Source: Enterobacteria phage vB_EcoM_IME338. From it: a DNA stretch of 64,000 bases. The notes below the pieces were generated by a model. The model had not been told where the DNA came from and searched no databases. It worked only from the letters and a program-made list of their open reading frames with translations. A program made the translations under genes and the position numbers. The stretch is taken from sequence record MH051914; one strand, 5' to 3'. Of this stretch, positions 7,043 to 64,000 are shown one piece after another. Position 1 is the first letter of the stretch; the number at the start of each line of letters is the position of its first letter.

Positions 7043-7063
7043 AAGACCAATTTAGGTCTTTTT
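7043..7063 (+). terminator. hairpin plus short T-run inside tRNA array (terminator or processing site)
   Basis: aagacc-aattta-ggtctt followed by ttt. Confidence 0.35.
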
Positions 7064-7142
7064 AGAGGGCTTCTAAGGTTATTACAGCTTGTTGTGGAAC
7101 CTTGTTGCTTAGGTTCTTAGAAGTTCTCTAAAAAGATTTAAT

Positions 7143-7219
7143 GCACCTATAGCCCAACTGGTAGAGGCAGCAGACTTAGAATCTGCTCAGTGTGAGTTCG
7201 AATCTCTCTAGGTGTACCA
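7143..7219 (+). tRNA. tRNA-Leu (anticodon TAG), class I-like short variable arm
   Basis: Acceptor gcaccta/taggtgt, anticodon stem gcaga/tctgc loop cttagaa, 5-nt variable loop, TTCGAAT T-loop, A73, CCA. Confidence 0.55.
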
Positions 7220-7226
7220 AATTAAT

Positions 7227-7302
7227 GCAGGTGTAGCAAAATGGTTATGCGGCTGACTCTTAATCAGTAAGACGATGGGTTCAATTCCCTCCACCTGTAC
7301 CA
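7227..7302 (+). tRNA. tRNA-Lys (anticodon CTT)
   Basis: Acceptor gcaggtg/cacctgt, anticodon stem gctga/tcagt loop ctcttaa, TTCAATT T-loop, CCA. Confidence 0.7.
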
Positions 7303-7308
7303 AACATT

Positions 7309-7384
7309 GGGGTCATAGTTTATATGGTTAAAATTCGAGTTTTGCAAACTTGGGAACTGAGTTCAATTCTCAGTGACTCCACCA
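7309..7384 (+). tRNA. tRNA-Ala (anticodon TGC)
   Basis: Acceptor ggggtca/tgactcc, D-stem gttt/aaat, anticodon stem cgagt/acttg loop tttgcaa, T-arm ctgag-TTCAATT-ctcag, CCA. Confidence 0.65.
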
Positions 7385-7390
7385 ATTAGT

Positions 7391-7465
7391 GCATCCATAG
7401 TTTAAACGGGAAAATTACAGTCTTCCAAACTGAGGTTGAGGGTTCGATTCCCTCTGGATGCTCCA
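7391..7465 (+). tRNA. tRNA-Gly (anticodon TCC)
   Basis: Acceptor gcatcca/tggatgc, anticodon loop cttccaa, T-arm gaggg-TTCGATT-ccctc, CCA. Confidence 0.7.
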
Positions 7466-7472
7466 AATTAAT

Positions 7473-7549
7473 GCTGCTTTCGTATAATTGGCTATTACAC
7501 ATCCCTTGTAAGGATGGAAATGCAGGTTCGAGTCCTGTGAGCAGCACCA
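7473..7549 (+). tRNA. tRNA-Thr (anticodon TGT)
   Basis: Acceptor gctgctt/gagcagc, anticodon stem catcc/ggatg loop cttgtaa, T-arm gcagg-TTCGAGT-cctgt, CCA. Confidence 0.7.
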
Positions 7550-7553
7550 ATTC

Positions 7554-7640
7554 AGAGGTCAAGTGAAAGACCGCTGGTGTCAACTGAAGACCGTAACAAA
7601 TTCCACGGAGTTGAGTTAGCGGCACAACTTCAGACCTCTT
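7554..7640 (+). repeat. inter-tRNA hairpin element, variant copy (CAGAGGTC...GACCTCT)
   Basis: 5' agaggtc pairs with 3' gacctct enclosing about 70 nt; same architecture as CAGAAGACC...GGTCTGG elements. Confidence 0.5.
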
Positions 7641-7644
7641 TCAT

Positions 7645-7719
7645 ACTCGCTTAGTTTATATGGTAAAACACCACCCTTACAAGATGAAGAAAAAGGTTCA
7701 AGTCCTTTAGTGAGTACCA
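7645..7719 (+). tRNA. tRNA-Val (anticodon TAC), weak anticodon stem; possible pseudo-tRNA
   Basis: Acceptor actcgct/agtgagt, D-stem gttt/aaac, loop cttacaa but anticodon stem only 3/5 paired, T-arm aaagg-TTCAAGT-ccttt, CCA. Confidence 0.35.
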
Positions 7720-7720
7720 T

Positions 7721-7799
7721 GTTCCAGTATCCCAATTGGCAGAGAGGCCAGACTTAAAATCTGTGTTATGTATCGGTTCGAATCCGATATGGAGTACCA
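7721..7799 (+). tRNA. tRNA-Leu (anticodon TAA), short variable arm
   Basis: Acceptor gttccag/atggagt (6/7 with wobbles), anticodon loop cttaaaa, T-arm atcgg-TTCGAAT-ccgat, A73, CCA. Confidence 0.5.
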
Positions 7800-7804
7800 A
7801 ATTT

Positions 7805-7880
7805 AGCGGTATAGCATAACTGGCAATGCAACAGTCTCTGAAGCTGTCTTATTAAGGTTCAAATCCTTATGCCGCTGCCA
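7805..7880 (+). tRNA. tRNA-Gln (anticodon CTG)
   Basis: Acceptor agcggta/tgccgct, anticodon stem acagt/gctgt loop ctctgaa, T-arm taagg-TTCAAAT-cctta, CCA. Confidence 0.7.
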
Positions 7881-7911
7881 CTTCTAAGGATTCTTACGAG
7901 AGTCCTTAAAT

Positions 7912-7987
7912 GTGGCCTTATCATAAATGGTAATAACCCATGCTGTGAACATGGTCTATACGGGTTCAAATCCCGTAGGTCACCCCA
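7912..7987 (+). tRNA. tRNA-His (anticodon GTG)
   Basis: Acceptor gtggcct/aggtcac, anticodon stem ccatg/catgg loop ctgtgaa, T-arm acggg-TTCAAAT-cccgt, CCA. Confidence 0.65.
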
Positions 7988-7992
7988 ATTTA

Positions 7993-8069
7993 TAGTCCAA
8001 GTAGCTTATATGGTTAAAGCGCGTGTCTGAAAAACATGAGAAGAGGGTTCAAATCCCACTGGACTACCA
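7993..8069 (+). tRNA. tRNA-Phe (anticodon GAA)
   Basis: Acceptor tagtcca/tggacta, anticodon stem cgtgt/acatg loop ctgaaaa, TTCAAAT T-loop; 3' end register uncertain by 1-2 nt. Confidence 0.6.
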
Positions 8070-8085
8070 ATTTCAAAGGTGCTTA

Positions 8086-8820
8086 ATGAAAGAGATGACA
8101 GAACAAGGTAAGGAGATTTTTAATCTCTTAAAAACCGGTAGAGGGTTTTCTAATCCCCTTATTACTGGTGCAGCAGTTCTCGGTGGAACCGTAGCTGCCT
8201 CTACATCACTTATAAGCTCTATTAGCTCTGTAACAGACCCTACAATAAAGGATAAACTTGTTGCTGCTGGACTGACAACAGTTCTGCTTAACAGCTTTAC
8301 AACGAGCCTGACAAGCACTACATCAACCACTAAGACATTGACAGACTACGGTCAAAAGTCTATTGATGAGTTTTCATCACGTATGCAGGTAGCAAAAGGC
8401 TATTCTAATGTTATGGGTGCAGCAGGAGAGCAAGTTGGTTGTACACCATTTAGTGGTATTATGGGTGTTGCTACAGAGTATGGTCAAAAAGCTATTGACA
8501 CAATTAACAGTGCACTAGATGGTGTTAATGATGTATTAAGCGACTTACAAGATGCTATTGATAAAGGTCTTGATACTATTTCTGATTTAGCTAACCAAGC
8601 TGTTAGCAAGATTAATGAAGGTATCTCAAAGATTACAGCTTATGCAGATGAAGTTGTGCAGATGATTGAAGAAGAAGCTGCCCTTATTGCAGAGTACCTT
8701 AAAACGAATATCAATGGGTTCTTAGCAGGTATCTTACCAGACTGGTTTGACGATGCTTGTAAAACTGGTGTAATTGATACTATTGCAACACCAGAAATGA
8801 AGAACGCATTACAGAAATAA
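8086..8820 (+). CDS. hypothetical Ser/Thr-rich protein with one hydrophobic segment, embedded between tRNA genes
   Basis: ORF 8023..8820 trimmed to ATG 8086 because upstream part overlaps tRNA-Phe; hydrophobic stretch PLITGAAVLGGTVAASTSLI. Confidence 0.5.
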   Translation: MKEMTEQGKEIFNLLKTGRGFSNPLITGAAVLGGTVAASTSLISSISSVTDPTIKDKLVAAGLTTVLLNSFTTSLTSTTSTTKTLTDYGQKSIDEFSSRMQVAKGYSNVMGAAGEQVGCTPFSGIMGVATEYGQKAIDTINSALDGVNDVLSDLQDAIDKGLDTISDLANQAVSKINEGISKITAYADEVVQMIEEEAALIAEYLKTNINGFLAGILPDWFDDACKTGVIDTIATPEMKNALQK

Positions 8821-8821
8821 T

Positions 8822-8914
8822 GGAAGATTAACCCTAAAAGGTAAGGGAGCAGTTTGCTAAACTGCCAGTAGCTGAGAAATCGGTGTACCAGTTCAAGTCT
8901 GGTATCTTCCTCCA
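8822..8914 (+). tRNA. tRNA-Ser (anticodon GCT), long variable arm
   Basis: Acceptor ggaagat/atcttcc, anticodon stem gcagt/actgc loop ttgctaa, long variable arm, T-arm accag-TTCAAGT-ctggt, CCA. Confidence 0.7.
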
Positions 8915-9031: not shown

Positions 9032-9091
9032 GCCCTGCTATAAGTATTCTTCCTTTCGCTACCGAAGAGTATTTTTAGACAGGGCTTTTTT
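9032..9091 (+). terminator. rho-independent terminator ending tRNA operon
   Basis: Long hairpin gccctg...cagggc (9032-9085) followed by TTTTTT. Confidence 0.6.
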
Positions 9092-9156
9092 ACAGAGTTA
9101 TACTTTATAAGAAGACTTATACAGTATGTCTCTGACGTACATTGTGGTTTCTCCTT

Positions 9157-9180
9157 GACGGTCTCTGTACCGTCTTTTTT
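9157..9180 (+). terminator. rho-independent terminator
   Basis: gacggt-ctctgt-accgtc hairpin followed by TTTTTT. Confidence 0.65.
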
Positions 9181-9216
9181 AAGGAGAAACATGGTTAATT
9201 ATTTGGAGAAAACATA

Positions 9217-9417
9217 ATGAGCGAGACCGTTTATAAAGAACTTTATGAAGCTAATAAGAAGCTAGAATTTATGCAGAACACTATCATGGCAATTGCAGAC
9301 AGATTGTCTGTAGCAACAGGTATTGATATTAAAGAGGCATCTATGGATGCACTTCTTGATGCTGTTGATGCAAAGTTCGAAGTTAAGAAAGAAGAGACTG
9401 CTACAGACTCTGAATAA
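9217..9417 (+). CDS. hypothetical small acidic protein upstream of large terminase
   Basis: 66 aa; GGAGAAAACA RBS before ATG. Confidence 0.45.
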   Translation: MSETVYKELYEANKKLEFMQNTIMAIADRLSVATGIDIKEASMDALLDAVDAKFEVKKEETATDSE

Positions 9418-9438
9418 TTCTATTTGCGGAGGCGCTTA

Positions 9439-11040
9439 ATGGACTTAAATGCTGTTAAGCAGAAGCGAGTGGAAGATGTTAGGAAAGTCCTAGCTGGAGA
9501 GTTGGGGCTTTCTGATGAAGTAAAAGAAATTATCAAATCATTCGGTAAAGACCCCTCTAAATTCCTTCCAACTCAAATTCTGACTTTATTAAGATACACA
9601 CCAGACCAAGTTCGCCTCATCTTTAAATTGATGACTGATAAGAACTATGTAGCCCCTCAACCGGGTTCTCAAGAGGTGTTTTTAAATACTAATGCTGACT
9701 TGGTTTTATATGGTGGTGCTGCTGGTGCTGGTAAAACTGCTGCATTGTTAATGGACTCTTTAAGGTTTATTGAAGACCCTAACTATAATGCTGTATATTT
9801 CCGTCGAAATACAACACAGTTACAAGGTGGTTTATGGCCTGCTGCAAAGAAACTATTTGGTAAGTTTGGTGGGGTTCCTCACGAGCAGAAGATGACTATC
9901 ACATTCCCTTCTGGGGCAACTATCAAGTTCACCTACCTAGAACTTGAAAAGCACGCTGAAGGTCATCAGGGTATTGAATACTCAGCTATTTACTTTGACG
10001 AAGGTACACACTTCTCAGCTTCACAGATTTCATACCTACAGACTCGTCTACGTTCCGGTGCTGAAGGTGATTCATACATGAAGATTTCTATGAACCCAGA
10101 TAGAGACCACTTCATTTATGATTGGGTAGAGCCATTCTTAGATGAAGAAGGTTATCCAGACCCTGAGAAATGTGGTCGTATTCGTTGGTATGTTATGAAT
10201 GATGGTGTGATGGTTTCTGATTGGGAGAGAGACAAGATTCTTGAAATGTTCCCTCTTGAGATTCCTCAGACATACACCTTCATCTCTGGTACGATTGATG
10301 ATAACCCAATTCTTGACTTCTTAGAACCTAAATATCGTGGTAAGTTGGAAAACAACACACCTGTAAACGTTGCAAGACTTCGTTTCGGTAACTGGAAGGC
10401 TCGTGCAGAAGGTTCAAACTATTGGCAAAGACAATGGTGTGAGATTGTTGATTCACTACCAGAAGATGTTTTTGATGTCAGAGCATGGGACTTAGCAGCG
10501 ACTTTACCATCTGAAATTAACCCTAACCCAGACTGGACAGCGGGTGTTAAGATGGGTAAATCTAAAAAAGACGGTTGCTATTATATCATTGATGTAGTAA
10601 GATTTAGAGATAGACCCTCTGGAGTCGAAACACAAATTAATTTGACTGCTGAAAGTGACGGTAAGCGAACTGGTATTTTTATCCCTCAAGACCCAGGCGC
10701 TGCTGGTAAATCCTATGCAACATCCCTCATCAGGAAACTTGCCGAGAAAGGTTATCGCGCAAGAGCTAAACCCACAAATAAAGATAAAGTTACCCGCTTT
10801 GCGGGATTTTCTGCTGCTTCTGAAGCTGGACTTGTAAAAGTCTTGAGAGGTAGTTGGAACGAAGCTTACTTCCAAGAACTTGAAGGTTTTTGTGGTGATG
10901 GCAAAACTAAAGATGACCAAGTGGATGCTACCAGTGATGCTTTCAACAGTCTTAATGAAGTTAAATTATTCAAGCCACCATCAATGGGTGCTCACACAGA
11001 CTTAGTGAGAGGAAACCCATATGAGGGGCTTAGACGTTGA
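9439..11040 (+). CDS. terL: terminase large subunit
   Basis: Walker A VLYGGAAGAGKTAAL, Walker B-like IYFDEGTH, C-terminal nuclease-like region; start set to ATG 9439 after GGAGG RBS. Confidence 0.9.
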   Translation: MDLNAVKQKRVEDVRKVLAGELGLSDEVKEIIKSFGKDPSKFLPTQILTLLRYTPDQVRLIFKLMTDKNYVAPQPGSQEVFLNTNADLVLYGGAAGAGKTAALLMDSLRFIEDPNYNAVYFRRNTTQLQGGLWPAAKKLFGKFGGVPHEQKMTITFPSGATIKFTYLELEKHAEGHQGIEYSAIYFDEGTHFSASQISYLQTRLRSGAEGDSYMKISMNPDRDHFIYDWVEPFLDEEGYPDPEKCGRIRWYVMNDGVMVSDWERDKILEMFPLEIPQTYTFISGTIDDNPILDFLEPKYRGKLENNTPVNVARLRFGNWKARAEGSNYWQRQWCEIVDSLPEDVFDVRAWDLAATLPSEINPNPDWTAGVKMGKSKKDGCYYIIDVVRFRDRPSGVETQINLTAESDGKRTGIFIPQDPGAAGKSYATSLIRKLAEKGYRARAKPTNKDKVTRFAGFSAASEAGLVKVLRGSWNEAYFQELEGFCGDGKTKDDQVDATSDAFNSLNEVKLFKPPSMGAHTDLVRGNPYEGLRR

Positions 11041-11056
11041 TAGCTAGGTGAGAAGA

Positions 11057-12583
11057 ATGGCAGAAATTACAGAAACACAAGAAAGCTTACCACCATTTAG
11101 AATGGGTGAAGTAGGTTCTTTGGGTCTGAAGGTTAAGAATGGTAGAATCTATGAAGAACCTCGTCAGGCACTAAGGTTCCCTGAAAGTATTAAAACTTTC
11201 CAATTAATGATGCGTGACCCTGCTGTAGCAGCATCTGTAAATATTATTAAGATGTTTGTCAGAAAAGTCAACTGGAGATTCGTACCTCCAAAGGGAAAAG
11301 AGCAAGACCCTAAAATGCTTGAAAGAGCAGACTTCTTTAATTCTTTAATGGATGACATGGAGCATGATTGGGCAGATTTTATTAACTCTGTAATGTCATT
11401 CTGCACTTATGGATTCTGTGTTAACGAAAAGGTTTATAAGAAACGTCAGGGTAAAAAAGGAAAGTACCAGTCAAAATTTGATGATGGTCTAATTGGGTGG
11501 GCTAAATTACCAATCAGAAATCAATCAACGCTTGATAAGTGGTATTTTGACGAAGACTTTAGAAAAGTTACTGGTGTAAGACAGAATCTGAGAAATGTTT
11601 CACATATTGCTGGAGCAATTAATCTTGGAGAAAGACCACTAACAAGAAAACTCCCACGAGCTAAGTTCATGCTGTTTAAGTATGATGATGAGTATGGTAA
11701 CCCAGAAGGTCGTTCACCAGCTAAGTTCATGCTGTTTAAGTATGATGATGAGTATGGTAACCCAGAAGGTCGTTCACCATTACTTAATGCTTATGTACCG
11801 TGGAAGTATAAAGTACAGATTGAAGAGTATGAAGCTGTTGGTGTTTCAAGAGACTTGGTAGGTATGCCAAAGATTGGTTTACCACCAGATTATCTGGATG
11901 AAAATGCAGAACCTGAAAAGAAAGCTTTCGTACAATACTGCAAAACTGTTGTTAATGATATGATTGCTAACGACAGAGCAGGTTTAATCTGGCCTAGATA
12001 TATCGACCCAGATACTAAAGAGGATATTTTCGAGTTCTCATTAGTTTCTAGACAGGGTGCTAAAGCATATGACACAGGCTCTATTATTGACAGGTATTCT
12101 AAGCAGATTATGATGGCATTTATGTCAGATGTTCTTGCTATGGGTCAATCAAAATATGGTTCATTCTCTCTTGCAGATTCTAAGACAAGCTTATTAGCAA
12201 TGTCAGTAGACATTCTGCTGAAGCAAATTAAGAACGTAATCAACCGCGACTTAGTTGCACAGACTTATGCTCTTAATATGTGGGATGATGAAGAACATGT
12301 GCAAATCACATATGATGATATCGAAACTCCAGACCTTGAAGTAATTGGTTCTTACATTCAGAAGACTGTTGCAGTAGGTGCTTTGGAAGTTGACAAAGAG
12401 CTATCTAATAAACTTAGAGAGCATATTGGTCTTCCTCCTGCTGATGAGTCTCAGCCAGTATCTGAAAAGCTTTCTCCAAATAGCCAAAGCCGTTCAGGAG
12501 ATGGTTATAAGACCGCTGGAGAAGGTACTGCAAAGACACCTTCAGCGAAAGACCCAAGCACAGCAAATAAGGCAAATAAATAA
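11057..12583 (+). CDS. portal protein (putative), contains in-frame 60-bp tandem duplication
   Basis: About 508 aa immediately downstream of terL; position and size typical of portal; start set to ATG 11057. Confidence 0.55.
   Translation: MAEITETQESLPPFRMGEVGSLGLKVKNGRIYEEPRQALRFPESIKTFQLMMRDPAVAASVNIIKMFVRKVNWRFVPPKGKEQDPKMLERADFFNSLMDDMEHDWADFINSVMSFCTYGFCVNEKVYKKRQGKKGKYQSKFDDGLIGWAKLPIRNQSTLDKWYFDEDFRKVTGVRQNLRNVSHIAGAINLGERPLTRKLPRAKFMLFKYDDEYGNPEGRSPAKFMLFKYDDEYGNPEGRSPLLNAYVPWKYKVQIEEYEAVGVSRDLVGMPKIGLPPDYLDENAEPEKKAFVQYCKTVVNDMIANDRAGLIWPRYIDPDTKEDIFEFSLVSRQGAKAYDTGSIIDRYSKQIMMAFMSDVLAMGQSKYGSFSLADSKTSLLAMSVDILLKQIKNVINRDLVAQTYALNMWDDEEHVQITYDDIETPDLEVIGSYIQKTVAVGALEVDKELSNKLREHIGLPPADESQPVSEKLSPNSQSRSGDGYKTAGEGTAKTPSAKDPSTANKANK
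11661..11780 (+). repeat. perfect 60-bp direct tandem duplication, in frame within portal gene
   Basis: ctaagttcatgctgtttaagtatgatgatgagtatggtaacccagaaggtcgttcacca occurs twice back to back (59/60 identical), duplicating AKFMLFKYDDEYGNPEGRSP. Confidence 0.95.
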
Positions 12584-13083
12584 TGGCTGAAGTTATCTCT
12601 ATTTCAAATGCTACACGGGTGCATTCGTATAGAGGTGTCCTTATCATCACTGATAAGTTATCTGTAGAGGCTGGCTCAAGGGTCAGCCTTTCAGGTTATG
12701 TTAGTGATGGTGGAGCCTCTGACGTTTTCACTATTTGCAGGTTACTTGATGCACCAATGAGTGGAAAACCGTTTATTTCAGGAAATTGTAGTGAAATTGT
12801 TAAAATTCCATTTGACAGTTCATGCCTTTTGGGTGTAAAGTTATATAACTGCGAGAATAAACGTATCAATGTTAAAAGCATTGAAGCCGCTTTCATTACC
12901 CTCGACACTGCATTTCAATCTCCAATGACAGTTAATAAAGAAACAAACAGACTTGAATACATTTTTTCACAAAATGATTACAAAGTACTTGTCAAAGGTA
13001 AAGTATATGATATGATTGTAAATGTGGTAGATGAATCTGGTAACCATTCAACAGTCCTTAAACAAAAAGTAAGGTTTAATTAA
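12583..13083 (+). CDS. hypothetical structural-module protein
   Basis: 166 aa ORF, start overlaps portal stop (ATAATGG). Confidence 0.5.
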   Translation: MAEVISISNATRVHSYRGVLIITDKLSVEAGSRVSLSGYVSDGGASDVFTICRLLDAPMSGKPFISGNCSEIVKIPFDSSCLLGVKLYNCENKRINVKSIEAAFITLDTAFQSPMTVNKETNRLEYIFSQNDYKVLVKGKVYDMIVNVVDESGNHSTVLKQKVRFN

Positions 13084-13415
13084 TGGGAACATTAACTATT
13101 GATGGTAAGAATAAAATCCTCGCCACGCTAACCCCAACGACTATTATTTTACACAATGTAGACCCAACGGCAGACCCTACAGCAAATAAGGTTACTCAGC
13201 CAGTGGCTATTTATTTTTCTGAACCGGATAATGGCTTAATTGCCTCAGAAGACACAGTTAACATTACTGTCCCAGCTTCTGCAACGGTCTCACACTATAG
13301 CTTGTGGGATACTAACGATAAATGCGTGGCAACTGGTGCTCTTAGTAAACCTCAATTCTTTGCTGAAGAAGGTATCTATGTTATCTCTTCAGTCTCTGTA
13401 GATTTAAACAAATAG
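13083..13415 (+). CDS. hypothetical structural-module protein
   Basis: 110 aa ORF, TAATGG overlap with upstream gene. Confidence 0.5.
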   Translation: MGTLTIDGKNKILATLTPTTIILHNVDPTADPTANKVTQPVAIYFSEPDNGLIASEDTVNITVPASATVSHYSLWDTNDKCVATGALSKPQFFAEEGIYVISSVSVDLNK

Positions 13416-13426
13416 GGTGAGTAAAA

Positions 13427-14773
13427 ATGAGTTCGAATATCTTCAGACTTGCTGATAGATTATTCAACCAACCTTTACTAGCCACTGAATCATTAGCTCA
13501 CTCAGCAGCAACTTATGTGAATAACAGATTGCTGGGTGATGTCCAAGCAGCAGTAAACTTTGATAAGCCCAAAGGTGACGCAAGAAGTCTTTTAAAAGTA
13601 AGAGATGATATTGCTATTATCCCTATTATGGGTGGTTTAACTCATCGTATGACATTCATTGATGCAATGTGTACAGGTGGTTTAAGCTCTTATGAAGGTT
13701 TACGCAGAGGCTTTGACGAAGCTTTAGCAGATGAGTCAATCAAGACTATTGTTCTGCACATTGATTCTGGTGGTGGTGAAGCTTCAGGTTGCTTTGAATT
13801 AGCACGTCACATTATGGCTTCAAGAGGCCAAAAGAAAATTATTGCTTATGTAGATGAGTTCGCTTGTTCCGCTGCATATGCTCTTGCATCTTCTGCTGAA
13901 GAAATTATTGCGTCACCAGATGCAGATGTTGGTTCTATTGGTGTAATCATGGTTCATCAGGAATTAACTAAGGCGTTTGAAAAGAATGGCGTAACAATTA
14001 ACGTCATCAAAGCTGGTGAGTTTAAAGGTATGGGTTCACCATTCCAAGCACTTTCAGAAGAAAGCAAAGAAAGACTTCAAAAGAGAATTAATGATACCTA
14101 CGCAACTTTTACAGGTTTTGTAGCTGAATCTCGTAATCTCTCTGAAGAAGCTGTAAAGAATACTGAGGCGAATGTTTATTCTGCTCAGGAAGCTCTTGAA
14201 CTTGGTTTAATTAACTCAATCATGTCTCAAGATGATTTCTTAAATTACTTACAAGGTTCTGAAGAGGCTCCTGTAAGTTTAAACGTTAACAATTCAGGTG
14301 AAGAAATGACTGAACAAGAAAAGCAAGAACTAGAAGCTTTGCGTCTTCAGGTTGCTCAAATGAAAGCTAAAGAACAGGAAGCTGCTTTGTCAGATTTGAC
14401 TAATAAGATTTCTGCTTCTGCTGAGGCTTTTGGATTTGATGCAAAAGAAGCTGCAACGACTATTTTAGGTGCTGGTCTTGATAACCCTCTGAGTGTTCTG
14501 TTTATGAATGCTATGGAAGGTGCTAACCAGAAACTTAATGAAACTATCGCATCACATGCTTCTGCAATGGAAGAAAAAGAATCAGAAATTACCAAGCTGA
14601 AAGAAACTGCTGGTGCTGTTCTTGAACATTCCAACGCTATGGAAGAAATGGGTAATGACGGCGAAGCTGATTTGGTTGAAGAAGAAAAAGAACCAGCTAA
14701 GAATGCTTCCGAAGACACCGCTGAACAACGCAAACTGGCTCTCCAGAATGCTCTAAAATCTCTTATCAAATAA
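13427..14773 (+). CDS. prohead protease (S49/SppA-like) fused to coiled-coil scaffold-like C-terminus
   Basis: IVLHIDSGGGEASG and FACSAAYALA serine-protease motifs; C-terminal EQEKQELEALRLQVAQMKAKEQEAA coiled coil. Confidence 0.75.
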   Translation: MSSNIFRLADRLFNQPLLATESLAHSAATYVNNRLLGDVQAAVNFDKPKGDARSLLKVRDDIAIIPIMGGLTHRMTFIDAMCTGGLSSYEGLRRGFDEALADESIKTIVLHIDSGGGEASGCFELARHIMASRGQKKIIAYVDEFACSAAYALASSAEEIIASPDADVGSIGVIMVHQELTKAFEKNGVTINVIKAGEFKGMGSPFQALSEESKERLQKRINDTYATFTGFVAESRNLSEEAVKNTEANVYSAQEALELGLINSIMSQDDFLNYLQGSEEAPVSLNVNNSGEEMTEQEKQELEALRLQVAQMKAKEQEAALSDLTNKISASAEAFGFDAKEAATTILGAGLDNPLSVLFMNAMEGANQKLNETIASHASAMEEKESEITKLKETAGAVLEHSNAMEEMGNDGEADLVEEEKEPAKNASEDTAEQRKLALQNALKSLIK

Positions 14774-16320: not shown

Positions 16321-16770
16321 ATGTGCTATACAGGCGACCCAGCCAATAACCCTCTTGATAGAGTAAGAATCCTCTGCACAGACACCAATAATGATGAAAT
16401 TCTTATTGAACAGTCTGTGCTAGAGTGGTTCTATCTAGAATCTGGAAAGGATGAAAAGAAAGCAGCCATCAAAGCTCTTAAATATTTACTCTTTCAAGTA
16501 GCCAAGATGGGAGATGAGAAGGTTGGTGGTGTTTATTTACGTAACTCTTCCAGATTCAAATCTCTGAAAGCTGTTTATGACGACCTTGTTAAAAGCTCTG
16601 TTTCAGGACTACCCTATGCAGGTGGTATTAATCAGTGTGATATTGACATGCGTCGTCATAATCCTTGCTCTGTCAAGAAATACACAGAATATGGTGATGC
16701 TGCCAGATACGAAGGCAGAGATTACTGCAACCGTGTTAATGGCGTATTTATTATCGAGCGAGATGAATAA
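16321..16770 (+). CDS. hypothetical head-tail joining module protein
   Basis: 149 aa ORF in structural operon. Confidence 0.45.
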   Translation: MCYTGDPANNPLDRVRILCTDTNNDEILIEQSVLEWFYLESGKDEKKAAIKALKYLLFQVAKMGDEKVGGVYLRNSSRFKSLKAVYDDLVKSSVSGLPYAGGINQCDIDMRRHNPCSVKKYTEYGDAARYEGRDYCNRVNGVFIIERDE

Positions 16771-17252
16771 TGGTTAAAAGGGTTATTCACCCCGCTAGAG
16801 CAAAATTAGTCGGGGCTATGAAGAACTTGCAAACGGCTAATGCTCAAGTTGGGTATTTTCAAGAACAAGGTCAACATAGCTCTGGTTTTTCTTATCCTGC
16901 TTTAATGTATTTACAAGAAGTTATTGGGGTTCCTTCAGCTTCTGGTAAAGTATATCGTAGGTTGTTTGAAATCACTATGATGCTAAACAAACAGACCTTG
17001 TTAGAGCAGACTAAGAAGAATCTATATAAGCAACTTAGAAGTCTCAACACGGACCCTTCAAATACCTTAGAAGCATTTGCAAAGAATGCTCAAAAGGCAA
17101 TTAAAAGAGGTTTTGGTAATTCTGCTATCCTCCCTCCTAACGCACCTTCCACAGTCAAGAAAAAAGGCTTTAATGCACCTCTTGTTGAGACAGGTGATTT
17201 AAGGGAGAACCTTGCTTATAAAATTTCTACTAAGAAGGGTATTAAAAAATGA
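16770..17252 (+). CDS. hypothetical head-tail joining module protein
   Basis: 160 aa ORF, overlapping start/stop with neighbours. Confidence 0.45.
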   Translation: MVKRVIHPARAKLVGAMKNLQTANAQVGYFQEQGQHSSGFSYPALMYLQEVIGVPSASGKVYRRLFEITMMLNKQTLLEQTKKNLYKQLRSLNTDPSNTLEAFAKNAQKAIKRGFGNSAILPPNAPSTVKKKGFNAPLVETGDLRENLAYKISTKKGIKK

Positions 17253-17650
17253 GACTCTTAAACAGACACAGCTTTGTAGTAAAGCGTAAAGTCTCTGAAG
17301 ATGGTTATTATAATGATGATGGTGATTGGGTAGCTTCACAAGATATTGTAGAGGTTAACTGTAAAGGTAATATCCAGCCATATATCAAAGGTTCTGTAAA
17401 GAATGGTACACAGATTGCTTTACCGGAAGGTATTAGGCTTACCGATACAAGAATCCTGTATACCACATATAAGCTTAGAACTTCAGATGATGTAGAGTGG
17501 AATGAGTCTGACATTGTTATGATTGATGGTCATGAGTATGAAGTATTTATGACTATGGATTGGTCACAGCAATTAGCCCATACGTCCCATTATGAATATA
17601 TCATTATTAGAAGGGATAAAATGAATGCAGTTAGAAACAGCAGAACTTGA
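17249..17650 (+). CDS. hypothetical head-tail joining module protein
   Basis: 133 aa ORF. Confidence 0.45.
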   Translation: MRLLNRHSFVVKRKVSEDGYYNDDGDWVASQDIVEVNCKGNIQPYIKGSVKNGTQIALPEGIRLTDTRILYTTYKLRTSDDVEWNESDIVMIDGHEYEVFMTMDWSQQLAHTSHYEYIIIRRDKMNAVRNSRT

Positions 17651-18224
17651 AAAAGGTCTAGTTAGAACCTTAGTGGATGTTATTGGTCACAGACTAGCTC
17701 GTGATAAAAATAATAGACCAAACGTAATTAGAGCTTACCCTTCTGATAACTCAAATGACAAAGGTTTAAAACCTGACCAGCCATTTATTACCGTATATTG
17801 TCAAGATGCTGCAACACCTTATGGTTGGGTTCTTGATAAGTTTGTTGAGGATGATGTAGTTTGCTACAGAATTGCTTTTCAGATTCCAGTATTAATTACG
17901 GTAAATGGTAAAGGTGCTCACAGTATTATGCTTGAGCTTAAACAAAGATTAGAGATGAGTTCAGTCAGAGATTTAATCCTTGAAGAAACAGGAGCTACAG
18001 TACTGGACACTGGAGCAATCCCGAATGACTATACTTATCTCAATACAGATTTCGAAAATTCTGCACCTCTTGTTGTAACTCTTGTAAAAAACTCAGTCCT
18101 GAAAGATGAACGTGGAAGTATTATTGAGCGTGTCATTGTTGATGGTGAGTTGGTTTATGAAGAAGGACAAGAGCCACCAGAATATACTATCCATCTAGAT
18201 GTAGACTCCAAAGGGGTAAAATAA
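17625..18224 (+). CDS. hypothetical tail completion-like protein
   Basis: 199 aa ORF preceding sheath-sized gene. Confidence 0.45.
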   Translation: MQLETAELEKGLVRTLVDVIGHRLARDKNNRPNVIRAYPSDNSNDKGLKPDQPFITVYCQDAATPYGWVLDKFVEDDVVCYRIAFQIPVLITVNGKGAHSIMLELKQRLEMSSVRDLILEETGATVLDTGAIPNDYTYLNTDFENSAPLVVTLVKNSVLKDERGSIIERVIVDGELVYEEGQEPPEYTIHLDVDSKGVK

Positions 18225-28753: not shown

Positions 28754-29926
28754 ATGGCAGTAGGTGAAATTCAAATTAGTGCCTTGCCTCAAGCAGCCTT
28801 ACCAATTGACCTTAGTGATATCTTCCATCTTAAGCAGGGTATTGAGGATAAGAGGTGCACTCTTGAGCAATTACTTGCCCCACACGCAAGTCTAAAAAAT
28901 AACCCTCATGGTGTTACTAAAACACAAATTGGTTTAGATAATGTTATTAATGCTCTTCAGTTAGTCGCTGCAAATAACTTATCAGATATTGTTAATGTAG
29001 CTGAGGCAAGAGCAAATCTACAGATTATGTCTTCAGAAGAGGTTAATAACCTTGTCCAGCAACATATCAAGGACAAGAGTAACCCACACAATACAACTAA
29101 GGCACAGGTTGGTTTAAGTAACGTTCAGAACTGGACAACATCCAACCTTTATAATGAAGATGCAGATAAGTACGCTACAGCAAGAGCAGTAAATAACTTG
29201 TACAAGGCTGTTCAGGCTTCTTATCCAGTAGGTACTATCCATCTTTCTATGAACTCTGCAAACCCTTCTACATATTTAATTTGTGGAGGCACTTGGGAGT
29301 TAGTTTCAAAAGGTAGGGCATTGGTTGGTTATGCCTCTGATGCAAGACCAGCAGGTTCTGTATTTGGTGCTTCAACTGTCACTTTGTCAGTTAATAACAT
29401 GCCTCAACACTCACACTCTGTGTCTCTTAGTGGTGGTGGTCACACTCATAATGCAACTGTGTCAATTTCAGCTTTTGACTATGGGACTAAGACTACCAAC
29501 TCTTTTGACTATGGAACAAAAGATACCAATACAACTGGTAACCATACACACAACGTATCAGGTAACACAAGTACAGATGGCACTCACAACCATGATGTGT
29601 ACCCTAGAGAAAATGATGGTACTGGTAATGCTGTAGCTGACTCTGATGGTGGTGGTGCATGGAGAACATCAAGAACTTCTAGTGACGGTGCACACTCACA
29701 CAGTTTTAACGTCACATCTGGTGCATCAGGTGACCACAGCCACACGGTTGGTATTGGTGCTCACAGTCATACTGTTGGTATTGGCTCACATACACACAAT
29801 GGTACTGTGGCAGTTTCTTCTTCTGAGCATACGCATAGTGGGGACACTAATAGTATTGGTGGTGGACAAGCTTTCAACATTGAGCAGCCATCCTTCGTAC
29901 TGTATGTATGGCAGAGAACAGCTTAA
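28754..29926 (+). CDS. tail fibre protein with C-terminal His-x-His repeat region
   Basis: 390 aa; repeats HSHSVSLSGGGHTHNATVS, GNHTHNVSGNTSTDGTHNHD, GDHSHTVGIGAHSHTVGIGSHTHNG, SSEHTHSG. Confidence 0.7.
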   Translation: MAVGEIQISALPQAALPIDLSDIFHLKQGIEDKRCTLEQLLAPHASLKNNPHGVTKTQIGLDNVINALQLVAANNLSDIVNVAEARANLQIMSSEEVNNLVQQHIKDKSNPHNTTKAQVGLSNVQNWTTSNLYNEDADKYATARAVNNLYKAVQASYPVGTIHLSMNSANPSTYLICGGTWELVSKGRALVGYASDARPAGSVFGASTVTLSVNNMPQHSHSVSLSGGGHTHNATVSISAFDYGTKTTNSFDYGTKDTNTTGNHTHNVSGNTSTDGTHNHDVYPRENDGTGNAVADSDGGGAWRTSRTSSDGAHSHSFNVTSGASGDHSHTVGIGAHSHTVGIGSHTHNGTVAVSSSEHTHSGDTNSIGGGQAFNIEQPSFVLYVWQRTA

Positions 29927-29972: not shown

Positions 29973-32324
29973 ATGGCAGATTACAAATTGAGTCAATTAA
30001 ACTCAATCGATACAATCCGTTCAGATGACCTTCTTCATGTCAGAGTTAAAAAGAGACCTGAAATGCTGGGTGATGAAGACCGTCGAATGACCTATCAAGA
30101 CTTCTTAGCATCTTTTAAACTAGAAAGATTTGTCCAGATTGCTGGTAGTACTATGACGGGTGACTTAGGTATTGTTAAGCTACTCTATGGTGGTAAGGCA
30201 GTATTTGACCCAACAGGCTCTTCTGAGATTACTATTGGGGATGTTTTAAAGACTTTTAAAATCAACGCAAACGACCTTAGACTAACTATTGCAGATGCTT
30301 CAAGGTCAGCAACTGTTTATCATACTCTGAATAAACCAAGTCCTAATGAACTTGGGATGAGAACTAATGAAGAGAATGATGCAAGATACTCAAGATTAGC
30401 TGCAAATAACATCTTTACATTCCAGCAGGTTATTCAAGCAAATGGTGAGGCTATTAGGTTAAAAAACTCTTCTGAGAACTCACCGTTGTATATCAGAGGT
30501 CAGGATAGCGCTGGGAATAATAGGTGGTATGTAGGTAATGATTCGGGGAATGATGATGTTCTTATCTACAACAACAAGACAGGCTCTCAAGTTATCATCA
30601 CTAATGATGTTGCTGTCAATAAAACACTGAGAATCACTGGTCAAGTTCAACCATCCGACTTCTCTAACTTAGATGCTAGATACTTTACTCAGACAGTTGC
30701 TAATCAGAGATTTGCACAGTTAGCTGAAAATAATACTTTCAGTGGTTTAAACAAATTTAATAACTATGTTAGTGTTAGCTCTAATGCTGCTGCTATCGTG
30801 CTAAAAAATAAAGCTGTCAATGAATCTTTGTTCATCCTAGCAAAAGATATTGAAGACAATAATCTGTGGTATATTGGTAAAGGTGATGCAAACGACAATA
30901 TCACATTTTACGATTACAAGGGTGGTACTTCTCTTGTCTTCAACTCGTCTGGTGCTGCATTTAACAAACCTGTAAAAATCACTGGTCAAGTTCAACCTTC
31001 CGATTGGACCAACATTGACTCTAGATACATTCCAGCAGGGACTTTGAGTAATCTTGCTAAGCTAAGTGATGTAAACACTTTTAGGATTGCACAGATTATT
31101 AATCAGAATGGCTCATTGTTACAGCTAAAGAATACTACACAAGACAAAGAGCTATACTTTGCTGGTCATAATGCTGATGGTGTTAGAAGGTGGTACATTG
31201 GGAATGGGGAAACATCCAACCCAAAAAGATTTATTATCCATAACGACAGAACTGCAACTACGATTTACATGGAAGATGATTTCTTGTTGAATAAAACAGT
31301 CAGAGTTAATGGTCAAGTTCAACCTTCTAATTGGTCTAACTTAGATAATAGATATTTTGTTAAGACTAAGCTATTAGACCAATCCTTAATGACTGTAACT
31401 GTAAATAACCTTGAAGACCATCCAGCATTTAATCTTGGATACTCAGGTTTTGTCAGAAATAACGGCGTTACTGATGGCTTGAGAGATTTGGCAATTCATG
31501 TTGCGCACTCTAGTAAGACTGCTGCATATGCAAGGGGTATCTCTTTTTCGTACGGCTCAATGGGTTTAGGAGTATTCACCTATGCCTATGATGACGAGGG
31601 TGAATACGCTGGAGAAGCACAGTTTTATACAACTGATTTTAAACCAACCCCTTCAGATATTGGTGCATACACTAAAGCTGAAACTGACCAGAAGATTGCA
31701 CAGGCAATTAGTGACTCTACAGACCTTAATAAAATCTATCCAGTAGGTATTGTAACGTGGTTTAACAGTAATGTTAACCCTAATACAGCACTTCCTGGGT
31801 TAACTTGGACGTACCTGAACAATGGTGTTGGTAGAACTATCAGAATCGCAGCAGCAAACGGTTCAGATGTTGCTACAACTGGTGGTTCAGACTCTGTAAC
31901 TTTAGATGTTGGTAACTTACCATCACACACTCACAGTTTCTCTGCTACCACTTCATCTTTTGACTATGGTACGAAGGGAACTAACACTACGGGTGGACAC
32001 ACTCACTCTGGTAGTGGTTCTACTAGCACAAATGGTGGGCACACCCACTACATTGAGGCGTGGAACGGTACTGGTGTAGGTGGTAATAGGACTTCATCAT
32101 ATGCTGTATCATACAGGAGTGGTGGTCATGAAACTTATGCATCAGGTGACCACAGCCATACTTTCTCTTTTGGTACTAGCGGTGCTGGTGACCATTCCCA
32201 CTCTGTAGCTATTGGTGCTCACACCCACACAGTTAGTGGTAACACTGGTAGTACAGGTTCTGGTTCGGCATTTAGTGTTACTAACCAGTTCTACAAGTTA
32301 ATGGCTTGGGTAAGAACTGCTTAA
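29973..32324 (+). CDS. long tail fibre protein with internal repeats and C-terminal His-x-His region
   Basis: 783 aa; repeated ITGQVQPS(D/N)(F/W)(S/T)N(L/I)D(A/S/N)RY modules; C-terminal [46 protein letters not shown]. Confidence 0.75.
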
Positions 32325-58153: not shown

Positions 58154-58546
58154 ATGACTAAATTAAATAAAAATCAAATGAACTGGCTTAAAGATTATGC
58201 TTTAGAGTGTGGCTCTTGTGAGAAAACTCACAGAAAATACTCAGAGTTTTACATAGCATGTACTCTTTTAATAACTGATTCTGTTATTGATGATGCAAAG
58301 GATGATGACATTGAACTCCCTTCGTCACTGCGTGATAAAGTTTTGGTAGCAACTGGTACATGGTCAGACTCATATGGCACAGAGATTGGTGACCTATCCT
58401 TCTACAGCATTGAACAAACGATGAATCCAAAGTATGTTGCTCTGATGACTCGTGCTCAGGAAGATGAACTCCTTCAGGAATTTATTAAAGAACACTGTGA
58501 AGAGTACGTCACAAAACATGTAAGGTTTGAAGTTGAGGTGATTTAA
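58154..58546 (+). CDS. hypothetical protein
   Basis: 130 aa ORF upstream of nrdG. Confidence 0.45.
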   Translation: MTKLNKNQMNWLKDYALECGSCEKTHRKYSEFYIACTLLITDSVIDDAKDDDIELPSSLRDKVLVATGTWSDSYGTEIGDLSFYSIEQTMNPKYVALMTRAQEDELLQEFIKEHCEEYVTKHVRFEVEVI

Positions 58547-63972: not shown

Positions 63973-64000
63973 TTTAACAGTAAACTAAGAGGTAAGTATT

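Follow-up and report, generated by a model that had tools for sequence, protein, structure and literature searches.

The portal gene of Enterobacteria phage vB_EcoM_IME338 (MH051914) contains, as deposited, a 60-bp segment that occurs twice in succession, and the question raised by this locus is whether the duplication belongs to the phage or to its sequence record. Its host of isolation was E. coli BL21(DE3), and its genome was obtained from 2x300 MiSeq reads assembled with Newbler 3.0 under default parameters (PMC6499177). A stretch of 64,000 nt of this record, referred to here as the window, was analysed and compared with related phages and with other records of the same submission. From these sequence comparisons, the duplication very probably represents an artefact of sequence joining or handling after assembly rather than biology.

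The repeat and the gene that carries it

Direct reading of the letters revealed two head-to-tail copies of a 60-nt unit within the portal gene, identical at all 60 positions (Table 1). TRF reported the same structure, with a period of 60, 2.1 copies and a score of 243 over positions 11655-11779, and a position-by-position scan showed identity at a spacing of 60 over 61 consecutive positions in window 11659-11779. The in-frame tandem duplication announced by the original prediction is therefore seen by three routes, although its placement at 11661-11780 was one base out of register. This shift explains the 59/60 identity then counted, which becomes 60/60 at 11660-11779. The repeat is codon-aligned in the ORF, the distance between 11057 and 11660 being divisible by 3, and the 20 residues that had been described as duplicated are AKFMLFKYDDEYGNPEGRSP.

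No other perfect direct repeat of at least 25 nt was found in the 64-kb window. The probability of a perfect adjacent repeat of 60 nt is about 4^-60 per position, and such a repeat cannot have originated by chance in 64 kb. At the repeat boundary, perfect microhomology is limited to 1 nt, and the agreement between CACGA and CACCA (4/5) is compatible with chance. Diverged repeats of a His-x-His type, including GDHSHTVGIGAHSHTVGIG, were observed at 29722-29788 and 32138-32219, in two long, neighbouring ORFs (28754-29926 and 29973-32324) that are tail-fibre genes by position. These repeats share 68-80% identity and are therefore old and genuine, in contrast to the portal duplication.

Table 1. 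Features of the window discussed in the text (positions in the 64,000-nt window).
Feature	Position	Strand	Basis
Terminase large subunit gene (T4-type), directly upstream of portal	9439..11040	+	Pfam Terminase_6N and Terminase_6C; start by homology to HY02 gp052
Portal protein gene (deposited length 508 aa; 488 aa in relatives)	11057..12583	+	Pfam, exact protein match, PDB portals, AF2
CACGA, abutting copy 1 on the left	11655..11659	+	4/5 versus CACCA (11715-11719, end of the unit); perfect match is the last A only
Copy 1 of the 60-nt unit, encoding AKFMLFKYDDEYGNPEGRSP, aa 202-221	11660..11719	+	TRF, identity scan
Copy 2 of the 60-nt unit, 60/60 versus copy 1, aa 222-241	11720..11779	+	TRF, identity scan
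Rotated-origin mark, last 25 nt of the window, AACAGTAAACTAAGAGGTAAGTATT	63976..64000	+	24/25 versus HY02 nt 1-25, directly preceding the HY02 rIIA ATG

The product of the gene is identical to AWD91339.1, a 508-aa protein of vB_EcoM_IME338 (record of 85,675 bp). The open-reading-frame list begins the ORF at a GTG at 11048; homologues start at the ATG at 11057. The protein matched the Pfam family PF06074 (Portal_Mu) with 89.9 bits (cut-off 23.9, E=2.6e-25), and this match is broken into two stretches by the 20-aa insertion. Portals of the Felixounaviruses Bas63 (9mt4) and Sf14 (9c39) have been solved (PMC12609058). Apart from the insertion, the IME338 protein matches both structures from end to end: phmmer aligned residues 1-508 with residues 1-488 of 9mt4_B across a single 20-aa gap, and identity to the Bas63 portal outside the insertion is 99.8%, with one substitution (V/A). 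Additionally, an AF2 model of the portal matched 9mt4_A in Foldseek with E=1.2e-64 and a TM(target) of 0.77. The putative portal assignment of the original prediction is thereby established by the Portal_Mu profile and the solved Bas63 portal.

The genomic context is equally typical. The portal gene follows the terminase large subunit gene, and genes for an S49 prohead protease and the major capsid protein lie further downstream. Upstream of the terminase, a large tRNA gene cluster is expected at about 4,900-8,900 of the window by homology to RPN213 (9,066-13,876, with about 22 tRNAs annotated there); a tRNA cluster in this position is typical for Felix O1-like phages. By profile, fold and gene position, this is an ordinary Felixounavirus portal gene. 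It shares its neighbourhood and fold with Bas63 gp3 and the Sf14 portal but differs from these 488-aa proteins, which lack the duplication, by 20 extra residues.

Absence from relatives and position in the protein

The original prediction had proposed a comparison with related portal genes, and this comparison did not bear out a real duplication. All 258 related phage records (Felixounavirus) are single-copy at this site, with 1476 nt in place of the 1536 nt of the window, and each aligns in two pieces. In the 301-member 90% protein cluster, the other members listed (40 read, 15 listed) are proteins of 488-491 aa or partial fragments. Ten Logan/ENA contigs with the identical downstream gene carry a single copy wherever the site is covered, and the complete portal genes present on six of them all encode 488 aa. 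Searches for the duplication junction, with an exact 36-mer and a codon-degenerate 39-mer, returned no match in viral, genome and metagenome contig collections, and the junction was not found in E. coli complete genomes either. Independent sequence support of the kind that a real duplication should have was thus absent from the 258 records and from these three contig collections.

An exact-protein look-up of encoding contigs recovered the 508-aa portal from one contig only. The UniRef100 entry for this protein is given as "n=2, Tax=root", and the second member is most likely a RefSeq copy of the same record. When one copy of the unit is removed, the IME338 portal becomes exactly the portal of Salmonella phage NJ12, a protein seen on 26 contigs. 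As judged from these comparisons, the true IME338 portal is most likely an ordinary 488-aa protein identical to that of NJ12.

The position of the insertion was considered in an alignment of 80 portal sequences (79 homologues and the query) reaching down to 33% identity. The best-conserved block of the family runs from (I/L)PR through KF(L/M)LF, NPEGRSPL and the next helix to GMP, and holds two of the ten invariant residues, P236 and G238. This block, which contains the insertion, is gap-free in all 79 homologues; the insertion thus falls, on this alignment, where the family displays no length variation. In the AF2 model, copy 2 occupies the native role, forming strand 224-228, the NPEGRSP turn and the long stem helix 242-264, while residues 203-218 of copy 1 are looped out after strand 196-200 with pLDDT below 50. 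The extra 20 residues lie between wing strand 196-200 and the strand-turn leading into the stem helix, a place where no solved or sequenced relative has them. The model suggests that a real duplication is structurally not impossible, as one copy may be extruded as a loop with the native fold formed by the other.

On that basis, a very recent in-frame duplication could be envisaged. Slippage, or illegitimate recombination involving the CACGA and CACCA sequences, would have produced it, and the single-plaque bottlenecks of the isolation procedure would have fixed it. It would have been tolerated because 20 residues could loop out of the wing domain just ahead of the stem helix. The repeat is perfect and in frame, its boundary carries the 4/5 quasi-microhomology (a weak point), and the predicted fold is preserved with copy 1 as a low-confidence loop. 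Tandem duplications produced by slippage in phage genes likewise are head-to-tail, perfect and in frame, with a short imperfect boundary repeat. Furthermore, the phage has been shown to be viable: its burst size is 81 and its titres exceed 1e10 (PMC6499177). Reads of 300 nt also span the 120-nt repeat, and the assembler alone should therefore not invent it. We nevertheless regard a real duplication as very unlikely. It occurs in no other Felixounavirus sequence examined, and it would interrupt a block without length change in every homologue aligned. The reading frame carries no evidential weight, because 60 is divisible by 3 and a 60-nt insertion keeps the frame at any position. Perfect 60-bp tandem repeats are also genetically unstable, and one that was neither neutral nor beneficial would disappear as lysates were amplified. 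The remaining objections to a real event come from the sibling records.

A second 60-bp repeat and the handling of the batch

The record of the sibling phage IME339 (MH051915, T4-like, 164,366 bp), which is unrelated to IME338 but shares its paper and submission batch, contains one perfect tandem duplication, at 58422-58481 and 58482-58541, with a unit of exactly 60 bp (TRF: period 60, 2.0 copies, 100% match). It lies in the conserved uvsW.1-like "DNA helicase" CDS AWD91499 (96 aa), and no flanking homology was found at its boundaries. Among 501 T4-like records, the repeat is present in IME339 and its RefSeq copy NC_055741 only; the other 499 have 460 nt where IME339 has 520. The uvsW.1-like CDS of the sibling IME340 is likewise 60 nt shorter than that of IME339.

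The batch scan covered about 830 kb, with IME253 and IME347 outside it. Perfect tandem repeats of at least 25 bp were absent from the complete IME281, IME340, IME341 and IME18 records (559 kb) and from 46.7 kb of IME167. In the whole of the scanned sequence, two such repeats were present, one in IME338 and one in IME339, each exactly 60 bp long, each unique to its record and both in conserved genes. We place the IME339 repeat and the portal duplication in one class of artefact.

This second lesion bears directly on the two origins offered by the original prediction, recent slippage or an assembly artefact. Real slippage events have idiosyncratic lengths, and independent natural duplications are not expected to share one; the IME338 repeat has the length of a repeat in IME339, an unrelated phage from its batch, and is supported by a single record. 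The twin lesion therefore counts against slippage and favours a fixed-length handling step, so that the artefact part of that proposal is retained in the form of a handling or joining error. For the same reason, the proposed gain of a repeat by a structural packaging-vertex protein is unsupported as biology.

Several observations indicate that the records were edited after assembly. The sibling records IME281, IME339, IME340 and IME341 (T4-like) were deposited as circular with base 1 at the ATG of rIIA.1, from which it follows that the authors had rotated the assemblies to begin at a conventional point. In the case of IME338, comparison with HY02 places the end of the window exactly one base before the rIIA ATG. 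By accession arithmetic, with IME281 ending at AWD91286 and IME339 starting at AWD91413, the portal AWD91339 is the 53rd of 126 CDS, the same rank as the HY02 portal (gp053). The Felix O1 reference record also begins at the rIIA ATG. From the window end and the rank of the portal, we strongly infer that rotation placed base 1 of the IME338 record at the rIIA ATG and that the window corresponds to record positions 21,676-85,675. With such a rotation, the original contig ends would now be internal. This cutting and re-joining, seen in the siblings and strongly indicated for IME338, is a further point against a real duplication.

Two other features of the submission were noted. The eight phages of PMC6499177 do not include vB_EcoS_IME167 (MH051912, 49,794 bp); the batch is therefore larger than the set described in that paper. 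In MH051913 (IME281), region 16648-17778 contains a gp35 hinge-connector CDS of 657 nt followed by an unannotated gap of about 470 nt before gp34. The gp35 gene is about 1.1 kb in IME339, IME340 and IME341, and the short CDS of IME281 may reflect a frameshift or truncation in the record.

A possible route to the portal duplication can be outlined as follows. The IME338 contig would have been taken as circular and its first base reset, by rotation, to the rIIA start codon. At the old contig junction, or during a cut-and-paste of text, a fixed 60-nt stretch would have been retained twice. As a candidate route, the first line of the contig may have been used to locate the end overlap, and the sequence cut behind the match when the cut belonged ahead of it. 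The outcome would be a perfect head-to-tail 60-bp repeat, located by happenstance in the portal gene. The length of 60 nt could correspond to one line of a 60-column sequence file or to a k-1 overlap for k=61. Common sequence files, including Newbler.fna output, have a line length of 60 nt.

Two kinds of evidence to be expected from such a handling error were found: rotation of the record, which for IME338 is deduced from the comparison with HY02, and a lesion of the same fixed length in another genome of the batch that is absent from relatives. Among the common problems of phage assembly, the Phage Annotation Guide names contigs that run past 100% of the genome and redundancies that have become internal (PMC8785237). 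As with the untrimmed overlaps of circularised and re-oriented phage genomes (PMC8785237), IME338 combines a short perfect copy at a presumed contig junction with rotation. Its repeat, like known finishing errors, is absent from relatives and recurs in a genome handled alike. It differs from the usual finishing errors, which are k-mer-sized repeats (55/77/127 nt, SPAdes) at record ends, in being 60 nt long, internal and associated with Newbler.

Some details constrain the route. Newbler 3.0, the stated assembler (PMC6499177), has no fixed 60-nt overlap, which counts against the artefact reading, and a de Bruijn overlap (k=61, giving 60 nt) was set aside as speculation, as the paper names Newbler. 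Duplication of a line in the final file was also discarded: numbered along the final record, the copy starts are not multiples of 60 (offset 41 in IME339 and 34 in IME338), and a duplicated line would therefore have to predate the rotation. The pipeline does not generate the lesion in every case either: the rotated siblings IME281, IME340 and IME341 are clean, and the lesion must therefore be sporadic. No end overlaps were found in the sibling record IME18.

A different kind of error would have arisen within the assembler itself, with Newbler building the repeat from chimeric or low-quality reads or from a minority sub-population, without manual editing. The paper reports only automated assembly with Newbler 3.0 and default parameters (PMC6499177), and the duplication is unique to the IME338 record, as this explanation would predict. 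We consider it extremely unlikely, however, because 2x300-nt reads span the 120-nt repeat and give an overlap-layout assembler no cause to double it. Base-level errors are absent from the rest of the assembly. In a comparison with RPN213 over 37 kb, all real genes are full length and without frameshifts, and the portal is the only gene with an internal indel of more than 1 aa, which rules out generally poor assembly as the cause. That the repeats of two genomes both measure exactly 60 suggests a fixed-length text or joining step rather than read noise, and the rotated origins testify to editing after assembly.

Consequences for the phage and for public databases

The chance that the duplication is real, with the identical 60-bp length in IME339 a coincidence, is very slim. 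If it were, IME338 would be a viable Felix O1-like phage whose portal carries twelve additional loops of 20 residues in its most conserved strand-turn, immediately before the stem helix that is wrapped by the C-terminal "bouquet" of the adaptor. This would indicate an unexpected plasticity of the portal core, which could conceivably alter packaging or the recognition by portal-sensing defence systems.

Under the preferred reading of a handling artefact, the consequences concern the databases. The erroneous 508-aa portal (AWD91339.1 / UniRef100_A0A2S1GPP5) sits in public protein databases, and the lengthened 96-aa uvsW.1-like CDS of IME339 is present in GenBank and UniProt and was copied to RefSeq NC_055741. 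Both lengthened proteins can mislead alignments, structure predictions and repeat surveys of structural proteins. A practical test for perfect tandem duplications is to seek the same fixed length in the sibling records of a submission. For the biology of IME338, the duplication is without consequence, and its real portal is almost certainly the ordinary protein of 488 aa.
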